Source: Actinomycetota bacterium (GTDB lineage: Bacteria > Actinomycetota > Aquicultoria > Subteraquimicrobiales > Subteraquimicrobiaceae). From it: a DNA stretch of 39,666 bases. Numbering within the stretch: the first letter of the stretch is position 1; each line of letters begins with the position of its first letter. This document shows, piece after piece, positions 19,936 through 36,317 of this stretch. Both the position numbers and the translations under genes were made by a program. Below the pieces are notes generated by a model, which saw only the letters and a program-made list of their open reading frames with translations, ran no database searches and was not told the origin of the DNA. Where the stretch lies: positions 1 through 39,666 of the forward strand of contig JBFMAG010000028.1 in the NCBI GenBank assembly GCA_040755895.1, given 5' to 3'.

Positions 19936-21696
19936 TTAGTCCGGAGCGATATAGGCTCGATTCCGTCCACTTTCTTTCGCTTTATACATGGCTTTGTCCG
20001 CTTTCTCAACGAAAGTTGCGACATCCTTTATATTGGGGGTAAGAGGAGTGATACCCAAACTGATGGTGATTCTATTGGGGTTGCCATTTAAAATAAACTC
20101 ATGAGCTTCCACTTTTCTTCTCAATTTTTCAGCCACAGCAAAAGCCTCCGTTTTATCGGTCTCCGGCAAGATCAATGCAAATTCGTCCCCACCGTAGCGA
20201 GCAGCCAAGTCCGCTTCTCGGATATTCCTCTTTATGATCTGTGCCATGATTTTTAGCACCTCATCCCCTCTCACGTGACCGTACGTGTCGTTTATGGGTT
20301 TGAAGAGATCTACATCGATCATAATAAGTGAGAGAGGTGAACCATAACGTAAAGCCCTTTTGAACTCCACCTTTAAGCGTTCCATGAAATTTTTATGGTT
20401 GGATAATCCGGTCAGACCATCGGTAATGGAGGTTTGCCTTAACTGTTCCACCACCTTCAAGAAGAGCCTTCGCTGAAAAGGAAAACACATTCCCCATTCC
20501 GCTAGGCCTTGGTAAATGGCGATGGCCTCTTCTCGGCAGGATTCATATCCACAGGCTCCACAATCGAGCTCATCCCGCTGATCACACTTTTCCGCGGTAG
20601 CTAATACCTCCTTGAGTTCTTCCTCCGTGGGAAAGGGGAGTTTTACCTCCTTGCTGGTAAATTCTCGCCGCATTTCAATCCATGGCAGCCTGGGAAGAAT
20701 TTGCTTGAAGTTTACCTTCCTCGGAGAGCTTTTGCTTTTCTCCTTATAATATTGCTCAATGATGTTTTTACGAGCATAGGTGCTCATATTGTCTCCCATC
20801 GCAGGTCCATCCACACACCCATCGCAGTCCAGAACGTCGATCAATTTTGGTCTTACCTCACCGCGAAGGAAGGCATCAGCCAGCTTTTCAATGCCATAAA
20901 TTCCTCGTATCACCCGAATGTCCCTATCCAAAAGAGAGTAATTGGCAATGGTTTCTCTGGGAAAACCACCACTTAAAGAAAACATCCTCAAAAGTACGGG
21001 GCGAACGGCATCCAAATTGACTGGAGGGAGGGACTCTAAATTGATATCCGCCTCTTTGAACATCAATCTTAGCTCATCAAAGGTAAGCACAGCATCGATG
21101 GCATCGGCCACAGGGTCGTCCCTGACCTCGGCTTTCGCCGCAACACAAGGACCAATGTATACTGTGGCCGTACCGGGATCGTACATCTCTTTAACTAAAC
21201 GCCCTTGCGCAATTACGGGAGAGATGATCGGAGCCAAATAAGCTAAGAATTCAGGATAATACTTCTCTAACCATGTGACAACCGCCGGACACGTTGATCT
21301 GACTATGGGTTCACCTGCCCGCTCTTTAAAAAGCTTCATATATTCATCGGCGACGAGTTCCTCACCCAAAAGAGTATCTTCCACGGAGAAGAATCCGAGT
21401 TTTTCCAAGCCGGCTGCAACCTGGGTGGGAGTTGCTGGGTAAAATGAAGCTACACACTCCGAGGCAAGAATAGCCACTACTTGATGGGAGGAGAGCAAAC
21501 CCTTCACTAAATCTATTTCAGTCTTTGCTTGCTTCGCCCCCTGGGTACAAGCATTGATACATCGACCGCAATAAATGCATTTCTCCTCAAGGACTTCTGC
21601 TTGTCCGTCCCTAACCTTTATGGCCTTCACGGGGCAGATACGCACACAACCATAACATTCTTTACATCGTTCTTCGATACTTTCGATAACCCTCAT
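19936..21696 (-). CDS. Sensory [FeFe]-hydrogenase-like protein (2x[4Fe-4S] ferredoxin, H-cluster-type domain, CxxCGxxxC FeS domain) fused to a GGDEF diguanylate cyclase
   Basis: CKECYGCVRICP and CIYCGRCINAC motifs. H-domain motifs are STCPAV (L1-like), GPCVAAKAE (L2, PCxxKxxE) and LDCDGCVDGP (L3). CGACGYESC is present, and the C-terminus has RYGGDEF with DVDLFKPINDTYGH. Confidence 0.8.
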   Translation of the reverse strand: MRVIESIEERCKECYGCVRICPVKAIKVRDGQAEVLEEKCIYCGRCINACTQGAKQAKTEIDLVKGLLSSHQVVAILASECVASFYPATPTQVAAGLEKLGFFSVEDTLLGEELVADEYMKLFKERAGEPIVRSTCPAVVTWLEKYYPEFLAYLAPIISPVIAQGRLVKEMYDPGTATVYIGPCVAAKAEVRDDPVADAIDAVLTFDELRLMFKEADINLESLPPVNLDAVRPVLLRMFSLSGGFPRETIANYSLLDRDIRVIRGIYGIEKLADAFLRGEVRPKLIDVLDCDGCVDGPAMGDNMSTYARKNIIEQYYKEKSKSSPRKVNFKQILPRLPWIEMRREFTSKEVKLPFPTEEELKEVLATAEKCDQRDELDCGACGYESCREEAIAIYQGLAEWGMCFPFQRRLFLKVVEQLRQTSITDGLTGLSNHKNFMERLKVEFKRALRYGSPLSLIMIDVDLFKPINDTYGHVRGDEVLKIMAQIIKRNIREADLAARYGGDEFALILPETDKTEAFAVAEKLRRKVEAHEFILNGNPNRITISLGITPLTPNIKDVATFVEKADKAMYKAKESGRNRAYIAPD

Positions 21697-27711: not shown

Positions 27712-27715
27712 CCCT

Positions 27716-27935
27716 CCATTAAGCTCACAGCTATTTTAGCAATCGGAGGGCAGTTAAGCAAGAAACAGAATTGCCTGCTAAAAATTTGACTAGCTCCCAT
27801 GTAGAAATACTTACAACTCAAACCGCGAATGCGCATTCTCCTTTGGGATCAACATATCTGAAAAGATGTCTTCACGGCAGGCATAGGGATTGAGACTCTA
27901 TGGAATATCCTGCATACTCCTGGCACCAGAACCGA
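27716..27935 (-). promoter_or_regulatory. Candidate lysine (L-box) riboswitch-like leader with an SD-sequestering element
   Basis: Minus-strand GGUGCCAGGAGUAUGC, CUGCCGUGAAG and GCUAGUCAA resemble the L-box segments GGUGC..GAGUAUGC, GCCGAAG and CUGUCA. CCCUCC (27749-27744) can pair with the lysC SD GGAGGG (27717-27712). The resemblance is partial. Confidence 0.3.
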
Positions 27936-28052
27936 TGAAGTAGCTTATCAAGCCATCAAGGAAGTTACCCCCAAAGCCATATATCACAAGGAAGACGGGT
28001 CGTGATTGTAAAGCAGAAAAGATTTAGGGGAAAGTCCTTGTCAACCCTCAAT

Positions 28053-28516
28053 TTATTGGTAGAAGAGATTTTCTACGATTTTTAGCATGAAACTTAAATC
28101 TCTAGCTGTCGCCAAGCAACCAGACTCTTTATCAGGAGCGCGTCTTAGGTAAAAAACTTTTTTGGAAGCCGGCGTGACTGAAGGACCTTCGGGTATGAAA
28201 ATGGCTTGCTGAAAATAGCCTACAGCCCTCTTCTCATTGGGATATCTCACCAGTTTTATGGGTTTTTCATAGTTAAAAACCACCACGGTACAACCCTTCT
28301 GGTAAGCACTTTCTACAAAATTGGGTCCTGCGACACACTTTGCTACGTGGTGTAGGCTAAAATTACCTTTTCGCCTTCTTCCCTTAATTCATCGAAGTAT
28401 TTATCTCTGGGGCGGAGGATGATCTTTCTCCGGGAGATTTTCCCCTCTTTGGATGTCCTCTCCACCCTTGTCGGGAGGTAAATCTCAATGAATTTAGTCC
28501 TCTCTTGAATCTTAAT
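28053..28516 (-). pseudogene. 5'-truncated, frameshifted paralogue of the lipoprotein gene at 31898-32481
   Basis: Frame A (..RRKIILRPRDKYFDELREEGEKV..) stops at TAG 28343-28345. Frame B continues (..KGCTVVVFNYEKPIKL.., the 77-aa ORF). The frames overlap only in 28346-28388. It shares DKYFDEL and the following beta-rich pattern with the 32-kb copy. There is no signal peptide and no start codon. Confidence 0.45.
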
Positions 28517-28534
28517 TTAGCACATTGTAATTTT

Positions 28535-30073
28535 TTACCTCAGCGACGCTCTGTGGATCATCACCGCTGTCTGGTCTCTTCTCACAAGTTGTTCTGGTCT
28601 GAAGCTCTTATCACCATAGCCCTGCACTATGCCTTGATCCTTGGCCGTCTCTATGTATTGCCACGCCCAGTGAGCCTGTGGGACATCTGTGAAGTATCCT
28701 ATGTAAATTGTATTCATTGAAATGCCCAAACCTCTCACGAGCATGGTCGCAAGCTGAGCCCTAGTGGCGCAATCCTCTGGACCGAATCGTTCGTCACCGT
28801 AGCCCTGCACTATCCCTTGATCCTTTGCCGTCTCTATGTATTGCCACGCCCAATGATCTTGTGGAACGTCGGTGAAGTATCCCCTGTACTCGGTATTCAA
28901 CGGAATTCCCAGGGAATTCACGAGCATCTTGACAAACTGTGATCTGAAGATGGGATCGCCCGGGCGAAAGAGTCCATCATCGTAGCCGGAGACCACTCCC
29001 TTACTGGCGAGGTATTCTATCTCACCATATGCCCAGAAATCCCTGGGGACATCAGAAAAATTTGGTACAGGTTTAAGAGTGAAGTCGATATTTGGGGTCT
29101 CATTGGGAGCGGTGACGGCGACGATGTCCGCGGTTTCCTCATTGGGTTTATCGTTGTAAAAGACATCGATGAAATCCAAATTGTTATAGGTGAAAACCCT
29201 GTAACTTCCGCTTCTGAGACCAATGATTGTATAATTTCCATTCTCATCCGTTGTTTCCCACTTACGGTCGCCATCAATTTGGGCACAGATATATATGTTC
29301 TCCAGGGGTTGACCATTGATGTCGGTCACCCTGCCGGAGATGGTGCCCCCTTTGGTGAGGGCAAAGTTTATGTTCGGAGTCTCATTGGGTGCGGTGACGG
29401 CGATAGTATCTGCGGTTCCCCACTTCAATTTGTTATCATACCACTCATCTATGTGACCCTGATCATTTGAGGTGTAGACCTCGTAGAATTCCCATGAGGG
29501 AAGACCAATGAGAGCATAATATCCATTCTCATCCGTTAAAGTTGAAATACTAGCCTGCCATCCATATTTATTCGTAATTACTTTGATGTTTGCCAGTGGA
29601 TTGCCGGCTTCATCCGTTACCCTACCTGTGATTTTGCCCCCAACTGATAGGACAAAGTTTATGCCCGTGGTCTCCTGAGAAGCATTGACCACGACGGTAT
29701 CGGCGGTCAAGGGTGTGAGCTTGTCGTTGTAGTATTCATCCATATAACCTTGGTCATTCCAAGTTGAGACCCAGTATTCTCCGGATGGAAGACCAGCGAT
29801 TCTGTAGTGACCATTTTCATCCGTTAAAGAAACGGGACCTACCTCAGGAGGTTCTTCAGGAGGTTCTCCCCCCAACCAAGTAGCGGTGGCCTGAACGATT
29901 ATACCAGCCAGTGGATTGCCGGCTTCATCCGTTATCCTACCCGAGATGGAACCATCTTGGGCAAGAACCTCCGGGGTAGTGGAGAAAATGGTAAAACCCA
30001 TTAAGATGAGCACCATAAGCTTTGCTACCATGCTCTTATAATTTGTTCTTTTTAGATGACTTAAGTAGCGCAT
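28535..30073 (-). CDS. Secreted envelope protein: signal peptide, 3-4 CarboxypepD_reg-like Ig-fold repeats and 3 C-terminal SLH domains
   Basis: Repeats G(S/K/T)I(S/T)GR(I/V)TD..G.PL. The SLH units are FSDVPRDFWAYGEIEYLASKGVVSGY and two near-identical FTDVPQ(D/A)HWAWQYIETAKDQGIVQGYGD (about 183-nt period, 28.59-28.88 kb). SD GGGGGA lies before ATG 30073. Confidence 0.85.
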   Translation of the reverse strand: MRYLSHLKRTNYKSMVAKLMVLILMGFTIFSTTPEVLAQDGSISGRITDEAGNPLAGIIVQATATWLGGEPPEEPPEVGPVSLTDENGHYRIAGLPSGEYWVSTWNDQGYMDEYYNDKLTPLTADTVVVNASQETTGINFVLSVGGKITGRVTDEAGNPLANIKVITNKYGWQASISTLTDENGYYALIGLPSWEFYEVYTSNDQGHIDEWYDNKLKWGTADTIAVTAPNETPNINFALTKGGTISGRVTDINGQPLENIYICAQIDGDRKWETTDENGNYTIIGLRSGSYRVFTYNNLDFIDVFYNDKPNEETADIVAVTAPNETPNIDFTLKPVPNFSDVPRDFWAYGEIEYLASKGVVSGYDDGLFRPGDPIFRSQFVKMLVNSLGIPLNTEYRGYFTDVPQDHWAWQYIETAKDQGIVQGYGDERFGPEDCATRAQLATMLVRGLGISMNTIYIGYFTDVPQAHWAWQYIETAKDQGIVQGYGDKSFRPEQLVRRDQTAVMIHRASLR

Positions 30074-30127
30074 TTGCTTTCCCCCGTCTAAAATACTCAT
30101 TTAACCTCGTTAAGTGATTGCAAATTT

Positions 30128-31375
30128 TTACTTCAAAGGACCTGTAAGAACTTCTCCAGAGATAGCATCCACGTAGACTTCTCCTTTATCGGTTTGCAGA
30201 CACCAAACGGGCTTAAGATCGGTACCTTCTTCGTCAAACAAGGGAGAATGATAGGCGAATTCGACTTCTTCTATGGTTACGGGAAGACGAGGTTTGAAAT
30301 TATCCGCTATCTTTGAAGCAGCCTTCTCCACCGCTTCCTTTGGTGAGAGGATTCTATTTGAAGCACCCTCTTGGAAAGAGGGGGTATAGGACAAACAATG
30401 AAATATGCCATTGTCACTCACAATGATATCTATTTGAGGACCACCGGGACCAACAATGGGAATCCCCTCAATCTTTGGTCTGTATTCAAAGCACCAGGCG
30501 ATGATATCGCTTTCTCCCGTGGAGAGTCTCTGTTGATTGATGGTTGAGACTTTTGAGAGGGAGTAACCTTCTTTGAGACCACCCGTCTTTTGGATGAACT
30601 CTTCCGCCTTTTTTCTGGCTTCTTCTTCACTCATCTTTGTGGGGATGGTTTCCAGGCTTTCATTGCCGTAAGTGAAGGCACCGGTGGGATAGAAGGAGAT
30701 ACCGTTTTCCCCATCGGTAAAGCTTTCTATTCCCTTAAATTCTTTTCTTTCAAGAATTCCCTGAAGCAATCTTTGTGCCAATTCTTCCGCTTGCACCTCC
30801 TCTTTCTCAATGGAAACCGAAGCAACCAGGGGTTTCTCTTCGCTCAAAGGTGTTTCCACCAGCACCTTCCCTTGAGCCAAGGAAAGAGGAGCTTGGGCAT
30901 GAGCCCTACCTCCACCGAAGAGATTCTTCAGGGCGAGCCAAAGGCGATGCCAGAAGGGTTTAGGGGCTCTCGTTAGATGGAAGGGAGTCCCCAGGTAATT
31001 GCTTTCATTCCACTGGTAAATGGCATTCTCATCGGAATATTCTTCACCTGTATAATTTGTGTAACCCGGTGGAGGATTGAAGCCATGCAACCAATCATAG
31101 CGGTGGTTCAGGTAGCCATCGATGGCCCAGCCCTCCTTCTCGTAACCTGCAAGTCCTTTATCGTGATTTGCTTTGATGAATGATGACCACAGGGTATCCG
31201 CCGGGGGTTCAATGCTTCCCGTAACGTATTTAAAGAATTGGTCAGTTATATTCTCGTCTCTATCCTCTGTGCTCAAATCGCGATATCCAAGAATGAGATT
31301 AAGCCCTCTATTGAAGGCATACCGCCAGCCATTTCGCCTTAATGCATCACAAGCCGCAAAATAAAGCCATTCCAC
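30128..31375 (-). CDS. C-terminal part of a secreted protein with two PepSY-like modules; probably one gene with 31456-31920
   Basis: The C-terminal ..SPKEAVEKAASKIAD..VWCLQTDKGEVYVDAISGEVL is PepSY-like. The ORF has only a GTG start with no SD. Its frame stays open upstream to 31516 without any start codon. Confidence 0.6.
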   Translation of the reverse strand: MEWLYFAACDALRRNGWRYAFNRGLNLILGYRDLSTEDRDENITDQFFKYVTGSIEPPADTLWSSFIKANHDKGLAGYEKEGWAIDGYLNHRYDWLHGFNPPPGYTNYTGEEYSDENAIYQWNESNYLGTPFHLTRAPKPFWHRLWLALKNLFGGGRAHAQAPLSLAQGKVLVETPLSEEKPLVASVSIEKEEVQAEELAQRLLQGILERKEFKGIESFTDGENGISFYPTGAFTYGNESLETIPTKMSEEEARKKAEEFIQKTGGLKEGYSLSKVSTINQQRLSTGESDIIAWCFEYRPKIEGIPIVGPGGPQIDIIVSDNGIFHCLSYTPSFQEGASNRILSPKEAVEKAASKIADNFKPRLPVTIEEVEFAYHSPLFDEEGTDLKPVWCLQTDKGEVYVDAISGEVLTGPLK

Positions 31376-31455
31376 ATCCCGATCGGGGTAACCGGGAGTA
31401 TCATACCCATAGAGCTTGCTCGTTAAACTGGAGGTAACAAAGCCGTATCTCCACT

Positions 31456-31920
31456 TTAGGGAGTCGGCATTGGATGTATCATCTTTGATCCAACATCCCT
31501 CTTTTGAGTGGTTGGTTCAGTGCTAACACCCCAATATTTAAGACATAGTGCTGCTTCCCAGGTATTTATGGTGGGACCGGCGGATGGCTCGTCGGGATCA
31601 ACGGGATAGGAAGGATCGGGTGGATAGGGGGGAGCATAACCGTGACCGGTATAGTAGATAAAATCGCTATACCTACCAGTGGTGTAGAAGTCCCAGGCTT
31701 GAGCATCCTCAAGCTGATCCCGAATCCATCCCAGGTTGATAAAGAACCAATCATCAACTACCAGAGCATCGTCACGATTAAGATCTTTCAATTTTACATA
31801 GTCATCTACGTAAAGAGCGGAAAAACTCATCTCAGCATAAGCTGGAAAACTGTACCCAGTAACAAGCAAAAAGACCAGAAGTAATACCACGAGATTCTTA
31901 ATCTTTCTTGTTCTCATCAT
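31456..31920 (-). CDS. N-terminal part (signal peptide, Pro-rich region) of the same secreted protein
   Basis: SD GGAGGAGGA lies before ATG 31920. The signal peptide is MMRTRKIKNLVVLLLVFLLVTGYSFPAYA|E. The ORF ends at 31456 while the downstream frame is already open. Confidence 0.6.
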   Translation of the reverse strand: MMRTRKIKNLVVLLLVFLLVTGYSFPAYAEMSFSALYVDDYVKLKDLNRDDALVVDDWFFINLGWIRDQLEDAQAWDFYTTGRYSDFIYYTGHGYAPPYPPDPSYPVDPDEPSAGPTINTWEAALCLKYWGVSTEPTTQKRDVGSKMIHPMPTP

Positions 31921-32481
31921 GGATCCTCCTCCCAAATTTTTTGACGATCTCTCTGATTTTTGAAATATCTTTACGAATCACAAACCCACCCCTTAACAAA
32001 TGAAGTATTTCAACTCCATTTTCTTTTGGGAGCACAAAGAAAGGTCTCTTATCCCCTTCTGAGATCCAATCAACACCTGATCTTTCCACATAGAATTGCT
32101 CCTTATATTCAAGAACTACAACTTCAAGACCGGCCTGGATGTAGTAAATCGAATAATTAAAAGGTCTCTTAATAGGTCCACCAACTGAGAGGAAAACCTC
32201 CTCACAGGCCTGTCTCAGCTCATCGAAGTATTTATCTTTTGGTGTTAGGACTTTACCCTTTTTCTTTTTCCAAATGGTAATACCCTCAAGCTCTTTGGGT
32301 ACCCAAGCCCTATTCCCGTACTCATCTCTTGGACCAAGCTTATAGTATTTCCTGTCTGGCTTTTGAGGTTTTACTTCTCTCCCACCCCCTCTTTTTCCAA
32401 AGTGCCTTTACACCCAGTAAAGATGGGGAAAACAAAGAAGAGGATGAGCAATATTCCCAAAATTCGATGAAACTTTCTCAT
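31898..32481 (-). pseudogene. Lipoprotein gene split by a frameshift in a C5/G5 run
   Basis: SD AGGGTGG precedes ATG 32481. MRKFHRILGILLILFFVFPIFTGC carries the lipobox and stops at 32371. The mature part (VKPQKPDRKYYKLG..KKFGRRIHDENKKD) is open in the next frame down to 31898 with no start of its own. One extra G in GAGGGGGTG (32385-32389) restores a single ORF. Confidence 0.6.
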
Positions 32482-32612
32482 ATGCACCACCCTAAACATA
32501 ACTTACCATAGAAAAATAACACCGGTGAAGATGGGGAAAATTTCAAAATTTTTTCTGTGGTGGTAAACTTGAGGAAAATGCTGGTAAGATGGGGCTAAAC
32601 AGAGATGCTTAA

Positions 32613-32824
32613 ATGAAAATAGCTTATTTTGATTGCTTTTCGGGAATATGGCGACATGGTCTTGGGTGCACTTTTAGATGCCGGGCTTCCCATCGAGGTG
32701 CTCCGAACCGAACTCGAGAAGCTTCCGCTCAAAGATTATGAAATAAAGGCGAAAAAGTGGAAAAATTGACATCGCCACACTAAAGTATGCATTCAAGCTC
32801 AAGAAAAGTATCGTGCGTGTTTGA
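32613..32824 (+). pseudogene. larC: larC (nickel-pincer cofactor nickel insertase, DUF111) N-terminal remnant with two frameshifts
   Basis: Three segments in three frames: MKIAYFDCFSGI / GDMVLGALLDAGLPIEVLRTELEKLPLKDYEIKAKK / GKIDIATLKYAFKLKK. Together they reproduce the conserved LarC N-terminus (..DCFSGISGDM.LGAL.DAG..). The remaining ~330 codons expected from a typical ~400-aa LarC are absent. Confidence 0.65.
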
Positions 32825-32901
32825 AGAGTAAAATCCCTTTACCTTGATCTTTAATGATTCCTCGCGAAGCTGACCTGGAATAGAAAGACCGGGGAAGGTG
32901 G

Positions 32902-34260
32902 TCATTCAATTTGGCATCTCTTCAGCAAGTTATTCCAATCTTCGTCAACCTTAGCTTGAAATTCCTCCATGACGTGCCGATTCTCTGGTTTAAATAAATG
33001 TTTGAATCTGCCTTGGGGTTTGAGCCATTCCACGAGAGGTTTCTTCTCCTTAGGTTTATGCGTCAACCTCCAGTTGCCATTTTCTACTTCATAGAGTGGC
33101 CAGAAGCAGGTTTCCACGGCGAGTCTAGCCATCCTTATCGTTTGATTCGTGGGATATCGCCAGCCTCGAGGGCAGGGAGCCAAGATATTCAAAAAAGCGG
33201 GTCCTTCGGCATTGAAAGCCTTCTCAGCCTTGGTGACTAAATCCCGCCAGTGACTGGGGGAAGCCTGCGCCACATAGGGAATGTTGTGTGCGGCTACACA
33301 GGCCGTCAGATCCTTCCGGTTCTGCGTCTTGCCCGGTATCACCTTGCCCACAGGAGAAGTTGTCGTCCATGCTCCCAAGGGTGTGGCACTTGAGCGCTGT
33401 ATACCCGTATTGTGGACTACAATTCCGTCAGCAATGAAATTATGCTCGTCCTCTACTCTTAAATCTAAAGTAGGCTCACATCCTGCTAATCTTATATTTT
33501 TTATTTTTTCAGTGTCAAAATATTTATTTTCTAAATTTTTTAAAACGACGACTTCATCTCCGACCTTGATTTCTGCCAATGTTTTCCAGACAAAGCTATC
33601 TCTTCTACCTCTACCATTTCTTTTTAAAACTAAAAAAGGATGATTTGCGGTTGCTTTTATTGAATGGTGTAAGGTTTCAACTCCATAAACCTCTCTTATT
33701 CCGTTATCAAATACACCAGTGCATCTTCTCAAAACTAACTGATGAGTCTTTTGGTCGAAGGCATATATTTTATCTCCCTCTTTTACCTCGGTTATTTTCT
33801 TAAGCCCATTTTCAGTCATTATTAAACAAGAGGTGCTCAGACAATTCATATACGCTTGATTGTCATAGCAGACATAGACCATTCGGTGTCCTCTTTCAAA
33901 AACTCCGGAGAGGGCTTGGAGACCGATGTCATAGGTGCCACCATCTCCACCGAAAGCAACGAATCTTATATCTCTTCTATCCATTTTCCCCCTCCTCATC
34001 AGGACCCTATAAGCCGACTCCACACCACTTAAAGTCGCGGCGGCGTTCTCGAATGCATTGTGGATATAGGGAACTTCCCAGGCGGTTGAGGGATAGATCG
34101 TCGTGGAAACTTCAAGGCAACCCGTGGGACAGCAGACGACCACGGGTTTGTCGGTGGCCATAAGGACCTGCCTGACGATGATCGTGGCTCCACAGCCAGC
34201 GCAAAGCCTATGTCCAGAGGTAAATCTCTCCTCCCTAAAGGACAATTCCTTGATGCTCAT
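32902..34260 (-). CDS. porB: 2-oxoacid:ferredoxin oxidoreductase beta (TPP-binding) subunit, interrupted by a mini-intein
   Basis: CAGCG.., GGDGGTYDIG..YDNQAYMN and TGIQRSSATP..TTSP extein motifs. Length is 452 aa, against about 307 aa once the insert is removed. Substrate (pyruvate versus other 2-oxoacids) is not determinable. Confidence 0.88.
   Translation of the reverse strand: MSIKELSFREERFTSGHRLCAGCGATIIVRQVLMATDKPVVVCCPTGCLEVSTTIYPSTAWEVPYIHNAFENAAATLSGVESAYRVLMRRGKMDRRDIRFVAFGGDGGTYDIGLQALSGVFERGHRMVYVCYDNQAYMNCLSTSCLIMTENGLKKITEVKEGDKIYAFDQKTHQLVLRRCTGVFDNGIREVYGVETLHHSIKATANHPFLVLKRNGRGRRDSFVWKTLAEIKVGDEVVVLKNLENKYFDTEKIKNIRLAGCEPTLDLRVEDEHNFIADGIVVHNTGIQRSSATPLGAWTTTSPVGKVIPGKTQNRKDLTACVAAHNIPYVAQASPSHWRDLVTKAEKAFNAEGPAFLNILAPCPRGWRYPTNQTIRMARLAVETCFWPLYEVENGNWRLTHKPKEKKPLVEWLKPQGRFKHLFKPENRHVMEEFQAKVDEDWNNLLKRCQIE
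33409..33843 (-). mobile_element. Class 1 mini-intein (145 aa, no homing endonuclease domain) in porB
   Basis: It starts at Cys140 (CLSTSCLIMTENG, block A). Block B is TANHPFL, block F is LDLRVEDEHNFIA and block G is DGIVVHN. The +1 Thr of TGIQRS follows. The coding DNA is visibly more AT-rich than the flanking extein DNA. Confidence 0.85.
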
Positions 34261-35474
34261 GCGACCACCTCCACTTCTTTGAGCCCCAGGTAATCAAGGG
34301 GCTTCTCCACCTTTCCTCTCTTGGATATCTCAAGAAGAGCTTCAAAGGCACGCCTCGCGTGCTCCGGTTTAAACTCTCTGCCACCCAAACCATAGATGAA
34401 ATTGACCACTAGCGGTCGTTTTTCCAGATCATAAAGGGCCGCTTTCACTTCACCAAAGAGAGGACCAGCCGCACCGGGTGAGGTCGCTCGATCCAGCACC
34501 GCTACAGCCTTGAGATGCTGCAAAGCCTCACAGAGTTCCCGGGCGGGAAAGGGCCTGAAGACACGCAACTTAAGAACACCAACTGGATGACCTTCTTTTC
34601 TCATCATGTCCACGGTGTGCTTGCTTGTTCCCGCCGCCGAATTCAAGGCAATCACTGCGACCTCGGCATCATCCAACCTATACTTCTCAAAGAATCCATA
34701 TTCCCTGCCAGAAAGGGTCCTAAATTCCCTGCCAACCCTCAAAATGACCTCCTTAGAGCGCTCCATGGCCTCGATTTGAGCTAGCTTATGCTCGAAATAA
34801 AAACCGCCGAGACCATCAAAGGGTCCAAAGGTTACGGGATGCTCGACATCGAGTAAGGAGAAAGATGGTTTGTACTCCCCAACGAAGTTTTTCACACTCT
34901 CGTCTTCGAGAAGTTCAACGCGCTCAATGCTGTGGCTGACGATGAACCCATCCATATTCACCATGACCGGGAGGCGCACTTTCTCATCCTCACCGATTCG
35001 AACGGCTTGAATTATATTGTCGTATGCCTCCTGAGCGCTTTCAGAATAGATCTGAATCCAGCTGGAATCCCTGGCTCCCATGCTGTCTGAGTGGTCGCAA
35101 TGGATATTGATGGGAGCGCTCAAGCAACGGTTGACATTGGTCATGATTATGGGGAATCTCATACCAGAGGCGACGTAAAGGATTTCCCACATCAAAGCCA
35201 AGCCTTGAGATGAAGTGGCCGTCATGACCCTGGCTCCCGCAGCCGCGGCTCCCACGCAAGCGCTCATAGCCGAATGCTCACTTTCAACCGCAATATACTC
35301 CGTATCCACCAATCCATCAGCCACGAAAGTGGCAAACTCCTCGGCGATATCAGTCTGAGGTGTAATGGGATAAGCCGCCACGACGTCGGGATTTATCTGC
35401 CTCATCCCTTGAGCAACGGCTGCATTTCCGGTGATGGCCACAATCTTCCCAGTGATTTTAGCCATCTGGCTCAC
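34257..35474 (-). CDS. porA: 2-oxoacid:ferredoxin oxidoreductase alpha subunit
   Basis: N-terminus ..GNAAVAQGMRQINPDVVAAYPITPQT... It overlaps the beta gene by 4 nt. Confidence 0.9.
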   Translation of the reverse strand: MSQMAKITGKIVAITGNAAVAQGMRQINPDVVAAYPITPQTDIAEEFATFVADGLVDTEYIAVESEHSAMSACVGAAAAGARVMTATSSQGLALMWEILYVASGMRFPIIMTNVNRCLSAPINIHCDHSDSMGARDSSWIQIYSESAQEAYDNIIQAVRIGEDEKVRLPVMVNMDGFIVSHSIERVELLEDESVKNFVGEYKPSFSLLDVEHPVTFGPFDGLGGFYFEHKLAQIEAMERSKEVILRVGREFRTLSGREYGFFEKYRLDDAEVAVIALNSAAGTSKHTVDMMRKEGHPVGVLKLRVFRPFPARELCEALQHLKAVAVLDRATSPGAAGPLFGEVKAALYDLEKRPLVVNFIYGLGGREFKPEHARRAFEALLEISKRGKVEKPLDYLGLKEVEVVA

Positions 35475-35748
35475 CGCCTTCTGCCATCTTTATGGCCTCT
35501 GGTGAGCATTCAACCGCGCAAATCCCACAACCCTTGCAATAATCATAGTCTATCCCAATCACCTTCCCCTCCTTAACCTTGATCGCTCCATCGGGACAGT
35601 AAATCCAGCAAACGAGACATTGCTTGCAGGTCTCCTCATTCCACACCGGGTGCTCCGAACGCCAACTCCCCGTTCTATACCATCGAGCCGTTCCGCCAAA
35701 GGGGATTAGCGCACCGGGCATCAACTTCTCCGCGCGCCATTCTTTCAT
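35458..35748 (-). CDS. porD: 2-oxoacid:ferredoxin oxidoreductase delta subunit (2x[4Fe-4S])
   Basis: CKQCLVCWIYCPD and CKGCGICAVECP motifs. Confidence 0.88.
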   Translation of the reverse strand: MKEWRAEKLMPGALIPFGGTARWYRTGSWRSEHPVWNEETCKQCLVCWIYCPDGAIKVKEGKVIGIDYDYCKGCGICAVECSPEAIKMAEGGEPDG

Positions 35749-36317
35749 TCGCTCTTCACCTCCTCAAAAGCTCGCCGAATGGCTCTAACGTTCCCCTCGA
35801 TGACTTTCGGCGAGAACTTATCCGCGAATACCTCCTGGAAATGCTCGGTTGTGCTCCCGAGATCCAGAACTTTGGTAGCCTTGATGAGAGCACCGATCAT
35901 AGGGGTGTTCGGGATGGGTCTTCCCAATTCCTCATGAGCGATGGTGGAGGCATCGACGGTGTAAACTTTCGCTTTTTCTAAACCGAGTCTTTCCTCGATC
36001 TTGGAAGGTGGTTCAGGCGTGTTCACTATGAGGACGCCATCTTTGGGCAATCCTTGAGCAACGTCAATGACATCGAGAAGGGTGGGATCTAAAACAACCA
36101 CGACTTTCGGATTTTCTATGCCGCAGTAAATGCGGATGGGGTCCGAAGAGAGACGAGTGAAAGCCTGAATGGGTGCTCCCATCCTCTCAGGTCCATATTC
36201 GGGGAAAGCCTGGACGTATCTTCCTTCGGCTAAAGCAGCTTCGGCTAGAAATTTGGCTGCGGTAACCGCTCCCTGACCTCCCCTCCCATGCCACCTTATC
36301 TCCACAAGTCTCTCCAC
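35745..36317 (-). CDS. porG: 2-oxoacid:ferredoxin oxidoreductase gamma subunit
   Basis: RWHGRGGQGAVTAAKFLAEAA motif. SD GGAGGTGA lies before GTG 36317. Confidence 0.88.
   Translation of the reverse strand: MERLVEIRWHGRGGQGAVTAAKFLAEAALAEGRYVQAFPEYGPERMGAPIQAFTRLSSDPIRIYCGIENPKVVVVLDPTLLDVIDVAQGLPKDGVLIVNTPEPPSKIEERLGLEKAKVYTVDASTIAHEELGRPIPNTPMIGALIKATKVLDLGSTTEHFQEVFADKFSPKVIEGNVRAIRRAFEEVKSE

Follow-up and report, generated by a model that had tools for sequence, protein, structure and literature searches.

A probable class-1 mini-intein in the thiamine pyrophosphate/Mg-binding loop of a PorB-type oxidoreductase subunit from an Actinomycetota bacterium

The porB gene on contig JBFMAG010000028.1 of an Actinomycetota bacterium (the whole 39,666-nucleotide stretch analyzed is referred to as the window) carries 145 additional residues within its thiamine pyrophosphate (TPP)/Mg-binding loop, which raises the question of what this insert is, where it came from, and whether the enzyme could work before it is removed. 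We consider it highly probable that the insert, residues 140–284 of the precursor, is a canonical class-1 mini-intein, that is, a self-splicing and selfish element late in its homing cycle, whose endonuclease has been lost. The precursor coding sequence (32902–34260, minus strand, as are all porB features below) was taken from the list of open reading frames (ORFs); it encodes 452 residues (51.2 kDa) and consists of an N-extein, the mini-intein, and a C-extein. The NCBIfam PorB profile NF008819 matches it at 1.9e-109, as two stretches flanking the insert. The N-extein (residues 1–139, 33844–34260) holds the CxxC/CPTGC Fe-S cysteines, the GGDGG motif (33937–33951), and the YDNQAYMN segment. It aligns without a gap to the structure 9bt4_C and is recognized by Pfam TPP_enzyme_C, which covers residues 46–140 yet only profile positions 2–88 of 151; the domain is therefore split by the insert. 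The C-extein (residues 285–452 plus the stop codon, 32902–33408) matches NCBIfam PorB profile positions 127–296 and starts at the Thr+1 (codon 33406–33408) of TGIQRSSATP.

The insert itself (33409–33843; 145 residues, 16.5 kDa, GC 0.34) runs from CLSTSCLIMTENG to LDLRVEDEHNFIADGIVVHN, its last residues being ADGIVVHN. Searched alone, it matches PF14890 (Intein_splicing; E 6.8e-15, 55.6 bits for a cut-off of 35.8), TIGR01445 (intein_Nterm; 29.1 bits for a cut-off of 24.5), and TIGR01443 (intein_Cterm; 27.5 bits for a cut-off of 15.6), all of them intein-specific profiles passing their curated cut-offs. Its phmmer matches in the PDB are the NpuDnaB (4o1r, 5.7e-10), Spl DnaX, and Ssp DnaB mini-inteins. 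An AlphaFold2 model built with 19 homologues (pLDDT 93.5, pTM 0.86) is all-β, and the fold predicted for the insert is that of a HINT domain: when this predicted structure is compared with the PDB by Foldseek, the top 14 matches are all inteins (TMq 0.79–0.86), with r.m.s. deviations of 2.0–3.7 Å for the top 11. The Ssp and Npu DnaB and Mtu RecA mini-inteins lead the ranking, and the TM value between the model and the NpuDnaB intein is 0.86. The initial annotation, made from the letters of this DNA, had described a canonical mini-intein at 33409–33843; the profile, PDB, and fold comparisons bear this out, and translation of the ORF shows the coordinates to be exact to the base.

All the splicing blocks named in that annotation are found, and their catalytic residues are invariant in the 118 PorB inteins that could be parsed among the 120 matches listed in a search with the precursor. 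Cys1 (33841–33843), the block A nucleophile, stands directly after YMN. Block B, T65-A-N-H68 (33640–33651), is a TxxH motif in which Thr65 and His68 are invariant, and it aligns with the TGNH/TANH of DnaB inteins. Blocks F and G, within LDLRVEDEHNFIADGIVVHN (33409–33468, matched by TIGR01443), carry Asp127, His134, His144, and Asn145. Thr+1 is retained in all parsed protein homologues and in the parsed genome loci described below. All the defining features of a class-1 intein that can be tested on sequence are present in the insert. A cysteine at position 6, which the initial annotation had offered as an alternative N-terminal junction, has to be discarded, as Cys1 is invariant while position 6 is Ser or Thr in 116 of the 118 related PorB inteins, and as splicing there would leave CLSTS within the conserved YMNTG motif.

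A further cysteine, Cys41 (33721–33723), lies outside the canonical splicing residues and is nevertheless invariant in 118/118 PorB inteins. The splicing domain of most of these inteins holds exactly two cysteines, Cys1 and Cys41, and the latter aligns with a Ser in the DnaB mini-inteins.

A search of the window protein with PF14528 (LAGLIDADG) gave no match. In keeping with the view that 145 residues leave no room for a homing endonuclease, the copy is 221 codons shorter than a relative that has one; without an endonuclease domain it is therefore a mini-intein, unable to home by itself. Its AT-rich and foreign composition, pointed out at the outset, is equally clear: GC is 0.34 and GC at third codon positions (GC3) 0.27 in the intein, against 0.51 and 0.56 in the exteins, and along the DNA the GC content is 0.30–0.36 within the insert and 0.50–0.60 on both sides.

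The flanks, ...VCYDNQAYMN upstream and TGIQRSSATP... downstream, place the insertion between the Asn and the Thr of YMN-TGxQ (the hyphen marks the junction). Removal of the 145 residues leaves 307 residues with a computed mass of 34.7 kDa, and the predicted ligated junction peptide of the spliced subunit is MVYVCYDNQAYMNTGIQR. This spliced sequence aligns without a gap to 9bt4_C, the PorB chain of a solved four-subunit pyruvate:ferredoxin oxidoreductase (PFOR), at 4.8e-89 (...cvdneaymntgiqrssgtp...), and likewise to the oxalate oxidoreductase beta subunit 5c4i_C and to the TPP domain of the Moorella PFOR 6cin_A; NF008819 now covers it in one stretch, from profile position 9 to 296 of 300. GGDGG and YDNQAYMN-TGIQRSS pair with GGDG and DTEVYSNTGGQSS in 6cin_A, and these alignments pair YDNQAYMN-TGIQRSSAT with DTEVYSN-TGGQSSKAT. 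Removing the insert thus recreates the YDNxxYMNTGxQ segment, as had been anticipated, and the alignment with intein-less PorB homologues, which shows no gap at YMN-TG, fixes the insertion point. The YMN-TGxQ segment is one that we take, from the D. africanus PFOR structures, to hold Mg ligands and a substrate-contacting Asn; the junction would therefore lie directly after this Asn.

The site is found both empty and occupied in related metagenome-assembled genomes (MAGs), the survey suggested initially having yielded alleles of both kinds. The best intein-free PorBs in a search with the spliced extein (P0121 and P0122) are 84% identical to it and 306 residues long, and P0122 is encoded in an Actinomycetota MAG with the same dnaX-ybaB-recR-porGDAB arrangement as the window. 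The DNA of the empty allele runs uninterrupted through the insertion site; the empty site in L002 reads ...GCTTACATGAAT followed directly by ACGGGGATTCAACG....

How the intein became so short can be read from its nearest relative (P0001, on JGI contig L001), whose intein is 366 residues long and which is 89% identical to the window in the exteins and 97% in the splicing domain. In the DNA alignment, the window intein equals the L001 intein minus exactly 663 nt (221 codons), which comprise the entire LAGLIDADG domain. The gap falls between ...VVVLKNL and ENKYFDTEK..., at Leu104-Glu105 of the intein (33529–33534); the deletion is flanked by ...AAAAATT and TAGAAAAT..., with 2 nt of microhomology at the joint, and the AT-rich run quoted in the initial annotation (~33495–33540) spans this joint. 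It is also the least confident block of the structural model (pLDDT 79). On the evidence of this alignment, the window mini-intein is one that has recently lost its homing endonuclease by a clean in-frame 663-nt deletion from a 366-residue intein. An intermediate is found in Ca. Subteraquimicrobium carltonvillense UBA2594 (Actinomycetota, Aquicultoria; L013, 2602–4503), in whose 326-residue intein a 120-nt deletion has removed 40 C-terminal residues of the endonuclease. The right-hand borders of the two deletions are one nucleotide apart, just before ENKYF. Judged by the aligned sequences, the two deletions are independent, and the shared border may come from selection for the C-terminal splicing lobe or from a deletion hotspot in A-rich sequence.

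Comparison of divergence along the gene distinguishes a mobile insert from an old resident. At the nucleotide level, the N-extein of the window is 87.3% and the C-extein 91.7% identical to that of L001, whereas the two lobes of the intein reach 96.5% and 97.6%; third codon positions have diverged 2–4 times less in the intein than in the exteins, and the window and L001 agree in all of the final 33 nt of the N-extein. Likewise, the inteins of L001 and L013 are 99.5% identical over 978 nt, with exteins at 90–93%. Taken together, the inteins of these lineages share 96.5–99.5% of their nucleotides and the exteins 87–94%. Over the 118 homologues, which were ranked by total score and are thus not an unbiased sample, intein and extein identity to the window are uncorrelated (r = -0.01), and in 99 of them the intein resembles the window more closely than the exteins do, although PorB itself is highly conserved. 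Such a contrast in identity, together with the low GC of the intein, is what an element that has homed recently would be expected to leave, and it indicates a recent horizontal spread of the PorB intein rather than an old resident co-diverging with its host. The extein differences from L001 lie mostly at third codon positions (36/53 in the N-extein, 25/42 in the C-extein), which shows that purifying selection acts on the host gene.

The search for a donor covered viral contigs and cluster representatives. With the PorB-intein alignment as the query, IMG/VR yielded distant inteins only, at 39% identity or less (best segment, at least 75 residues), and two fragments of ~50 residues that reach 43%. 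A viral vector is rejected on these data, no IMG/VR match falling in the range of 45–95% identity seen among PorB-intein loci. The intein alone, compared with 1.84 billion cluster representatives, hits 17 clusters at E<1e-30; about 13 of the top 150 cluster matches are PorB, the others have different hosts at 39% identity or less, and no closer non-PorB donor was found among these representatives.

The occupied site is widespread. All 118 parsed matches read YMN-C...HN-TG[IV]QRS; 74 of their inteins are ~366 residues long and carry a LAGLIDADG domain, and the remainder, 153–356 residues, are variously shortened. A scan of the GTDB species-representative genomes gave at least 219 loci occupied at the same site, in Bacteria (Omnitrophota, Aerophobetes, Planctomycetia, Clostridia, Patescibacteria, Poribacteria, and Dependentiae) and in Archaea (Hadarchaeota, DPANN groups, Heimdallarchaeota, Bathyarchaeia, Methanophagales, and Methanosarcinales), every carrier genome being a MAG or a single-amplified genome. 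Among the 64 GTDB loci that were parsed, 44 have full or near-full inteins and 20 have mini-inteins (141–212 residues), and none has an internal stop. The shortest of them, a 141-residue intein in an archaeal PorB (L007, 583–1047, from a Hadarchaeota archaeon MAG), is 75% identical to that of the window over the junction-spanning query; closely related mini-inteins therefore occur in both domains. Some PorB homologues from the search of cluster representatives (P0242, 798 residues, and P0251, 633 residues and truncated) contain two inteins, one of them at YMN-T. Their second intein is LAGLIDADG-bearing, lies within the GDG motif (GGDG[G/A]-CYS...NGN-SYDIG), and ends in Gly-Asn, not His-Asn; at least two sites in PorB thus accept inteins.

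If the insert splices as its residues suggest, porB would be translated as a 51-kDa precursor with an interrupted TPP/Mg-binding loop. An N-S acyl shift at Cys1 would be followed by trans-esterification to Thr+1, by cyclization of Asn145 aided by His144, Asp127, and His134, and by an O-N shift, which would yield the 34.7-kDa beta subunit with the loop ...YDNQAYMN-TGIQRSS... restored and a free 16.5-kDa intein; this class-1 pathway is standard. Only the spliced subunit would bind TPP and assemble into the active four-subunit oxidoreductase, and, given where the insert lies, it is reasonable to expect that the enzyme would be active only after splicing. The element would have entered an Aquicultoria-like Actinomycetota lineage as a 366-residue LAGLIDADG intein, from a low-GC donor pool common to many uncultured anaerobic Bacteria and Archaea, and the whole endonuclease would then have been lost in this genome by the single in-frame 663-nt deletion. 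Mini-inteins in general derive from full inteins through endonuclease loss. The present one persists, in this account, because the active-site loop that it occupies is essential and would tolerate nothing but a precise excision. That inteins occupy conserved functional sites, and that they persist there because a precise deletion is required, is established in the field (PMC7765530).

Several points weigh against this account. Splicing itself would follow here by analogy with the standard class-1 pathway; the deletion joint is the weakest part of the model (pLDDT 79); and endonuclease removal abolishes splicing in some inteins, such as Mja TFIIB (cited in PMC7765530). A second, intein-free oxidoreductase elsewhere in the genome, of which one contig was seen, would make splicing dispensable. 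The substrate, too, is a best guess, because the best NCBIfam matches of the spliced PorB (NF008819, 383.8 bits) and of the neighboring alpha subunit (PorA_Arch, 532.5 bits) fall just under their equivalog cut-offs of 405 and 550, respectively.

A host-beneficial function could be added to this picture. A domesticated regulatory intein, in which conditional splicing, for instance through oxidation of Cys1 or a Cys1-Cys41 disulfide, would redox-gate the maturation of an oxygen-sensitive oxidoreductase, is compatible with the intein identity, but we regard it as unlikely. The invariance of Cys41 in 118/118 homologues, where it has no canonical role, speaks for it, as does the occurrence of intact endonuclease-free versions in many lineages (the 20 stop-free mini-inteins among the 64 parsed GTDB loci); moreover, other inteins are reported to splice conditionally, in response to redox state or substrate (PMC5790916, PMC5238726, PMC10663303). 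Nevertheless, the invariant cysteine is the sole argument that is specific to it. That mini-inteins persist needs no explanation beyond the difficulty of deleting one precisely from an active-site loop, and a purely selfish element would be expected to show both the mobility signature and the numerous empty alleles seen in the closest orthologues. Its most specific form, a redox-gated maturation switch in which Cys41 traps Cys1 upon oxidation so that the oxidoreductase would mature only in a reduced cell, is rather more doubtful; if true, it would be a post-translational control common to hundreds of uncultured anaerobic Bacteria and Archaea.

Alternatively, the intein could be a splicing-dead relic, inactivated by the deletion of the endonuclease or by other changes, with porB encoding a non-functional or crippled precursor. 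The deposited annotation, which starts at Met138 (315 residues) and leaves the full ORF uncalled, and the low model confidence at the deletion joint could be taken in this sense. However, the 452-codon frame is intact with all the catalytic residues kept, the HINT fold is confidently predicted, and the extein differences from relatives are mostly synonymous; natural mini-inteins of 141–224 residues with comparable linkers are widespread and intact, and an error of the gene caller accounts most simply for the short annotated protein. We therefore hold a dead element to be very improbable. Close to negligible, finally, is an unspliced lineage-specific PorB accessory domain or an autoprocessing domain of the bacterial intein-like (BIL) or Hedgehog type, for although Foldseek lists such Hint domains at lower rank (6y75, 2lwy, 1at0, 6tyy) and Pfam gives sub-threshold PT-HINT and Hint matches, this reading is contradicted by the site in an invariant catalytic loop, by the C-terminal His-Asn followed by Thr+1, by relatives that house a LAGLIDADG endonuclease inside the domain, by close orthologues that have neither insert nor gap, by the intein specificity of the profiles passing their cut-offs, and by the rank of the first BIL structure, 15th, under the top 14 intein matches. 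BIL domains sit at variable, non-conserved places in hypervariable proteins, and they usually lack the +1 nucleophile or do not ligate their flanks.

Compared with structurally characterized inteins, the mini-intein of the window, the favored interpretation being retained, most resembles the DnaB mini-inteins (Ssp, 1mi8/6frh; NpuDnaB, 4o1r) and that of Mtu RecA. They share the HINT fold (predicted TM 0.83–0.86, r.m.s. deviation 2.0–2.7 Å), the catalytic set (Cys1, TxxH, block F Asp/His, and His-Asn), and a similar size (~140–155 residues), at 26–30% identity. Their hosts are replication and repair ATPases, whereas the window host is a TPP/Fe-S oxidoreductase subunit, and unlike them the PorB intein has a +1 Thr and the additional invariant Cys41. 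The mini-inteins used for structural work are, moreover, largely engineered, while that of the window arose by a natural deletion, and its parent is still present in a sister lineage. Outside PorB, the nearest relatives in the search of 1.84 billion cluster representatives include SufB inteins (e.g. mycobacterial; P0249 and P0259), with T4-type phage portal inteins (P0258 and P0263) scoring alike. SufB, as PorB, is a non-replicative, Fe-S-related host; however, its intein differs in host and insertion site and, at 39% identity or less, is a separate allele and not the source of the window intein. The closest known elements are the LAGLIDADG PorB inteins of Omnitrophota, Aerophobetes, Planctomycetia, Hadarchaeota, DPANN, and others, which are known from database entries only. 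They sit at the identical site, YMN-C...HN-TG(I/V)QRS, in 118/118 proteins and in 64/64 parseable GTDB loci. PorB inteins are 61–97% identical to the window in the splicing domain; the LAGLIDADG ones are mostly 366–370 residues long, and the 145-residue copy of the window is among the shortest (minimum 141, in L007).

A survey of intein hosts places 61.5–66.9% of them in COG category L and stresses replication, repair, and nucleotide metabolism (PMC4760082). The initial annotation had called an intein in a central-metabolism oxidoreductase unusual, which agrees with the literature and disagrees with the databases: full-text searches of 8 million papers, whose coverage does not extend to InBase or to the supplement of PMC4760082, brought up no publication that treats an intein of PorB or PFOR, whereas all 118 parseable matches and at least 219 GTDB loci carry one. 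The host and site therefore appear to be undescribed in the searched literature, yet automated annotation already tags the combination, JGI naming some homologues 'PorB/intein/homing endonuclease' and one UniRef entry being called 'DOD-type homing endonuclease'. The case adds an enzyme of central carbon and energy metabolism, PFOR, at its TPP/Mg loop, to the intein hosts; it provides, in one lineage, a clean natural series of empty site and 366-, 326-, and 145-residue inteins, and the sequences indicate that the intein has recently spread horizontally in Bacteria and Archaea alike. Its main value lies in this series, in the distribution over two domains, and in a possible tie of splicing to anaerobic metabolism. 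The element follows canonical intein biology throughout, and the understanding of how inteins work is unchanged by it. Being small, natural, and of known parentage, this Cys1/Thr+1 mini-intein is a candidate for protein-engineering toolkits.

The host protein is probably, on its profile matches, the PorB-type beta subunit of a four-subunit 2-oxoacid:ferredoxin oxidoreductase with pyruvate as the substrate, the VorB-type profile NF008818 being second for the spliced sequence (324 bits). The genes for gamma, delta, alpha, and beta adjoin in a porG-porD-porA-porB operon on the minus strand. The gamma subunit (porG/porC, 35745–36317, 190 residues) is matched by Pfam POR and by TIGR02175 PorC_KorC (217.6 bits for a cut-off of 81.1), and delta (porD, 35458–35748, 96 residues) is a 2x[4Fe-4S] ferredoxin-like protein with Fer4 domains that scores above the cut-off of TIGR02179 PorD_KorD; both pass 'pyruvate/2-ketoisovalerate family' subfamily models. 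The alpha subunit (porA, 34257–35474, 405 residues) carries Pfam POR_N and PFOR_II, with PorA_Arch as the best NCBIfam match.

The deposited NCBI protein of the contig (P0003, 'MAG: pyruvate ferredoxin oxidoreductase [Actinomycetota bacterium]') is 315 residues long and begins at Met138 (33847–33849, minus strand), two residues ahead of the intein. It is thus without the entire N-extein, including the TPP GDG motif and the Fe-S cysteines, apparently because the intein misled the gene caller. This flags a recurrent annotation error, through which metabolic reconstructions of MAGs can miss or miscall PorB.

Further genes of the contig include dnaX-ybaB-recR, hypF/D/E, nrdD, and a hydrogenase-like GGDEF protein, and the contig looks like part of an anaerobic Actinomycetota chromosome. 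No intein domains were found in the classic intein hosts of the window, DnaX (588 residues), NrdD (686 residues), and a helicase, and tRNA and Rfam searches of the whole window gave no match. Between porB and the aspartokinase gene lie ~5.2 kb (27712–32901), which comprise an SLH/CarboxypepD_reg surface protein (28535–30100), two ORFs without a Pfam or NCBIfam match (30128–31375 and 31456–31935), and a low-GC stretch of ~1 kb without long ORFs (31936–32901). The aspartokinase gene directly follows porB in L013, and HAMP/GAF and HD genes stand there instead in L002; by these comparisons, the region beside the por operon is variable. In the 586-residue hydrogenase-like protein (19936–21696, minus strand), Fe-S motifs and a domain resembling the [FeFe]-hydrogenase large subunit are followed at the C-terminus by a GGDEF diguanylate cyclase domain; the protein may sense H2 or redox state and act in signaling.

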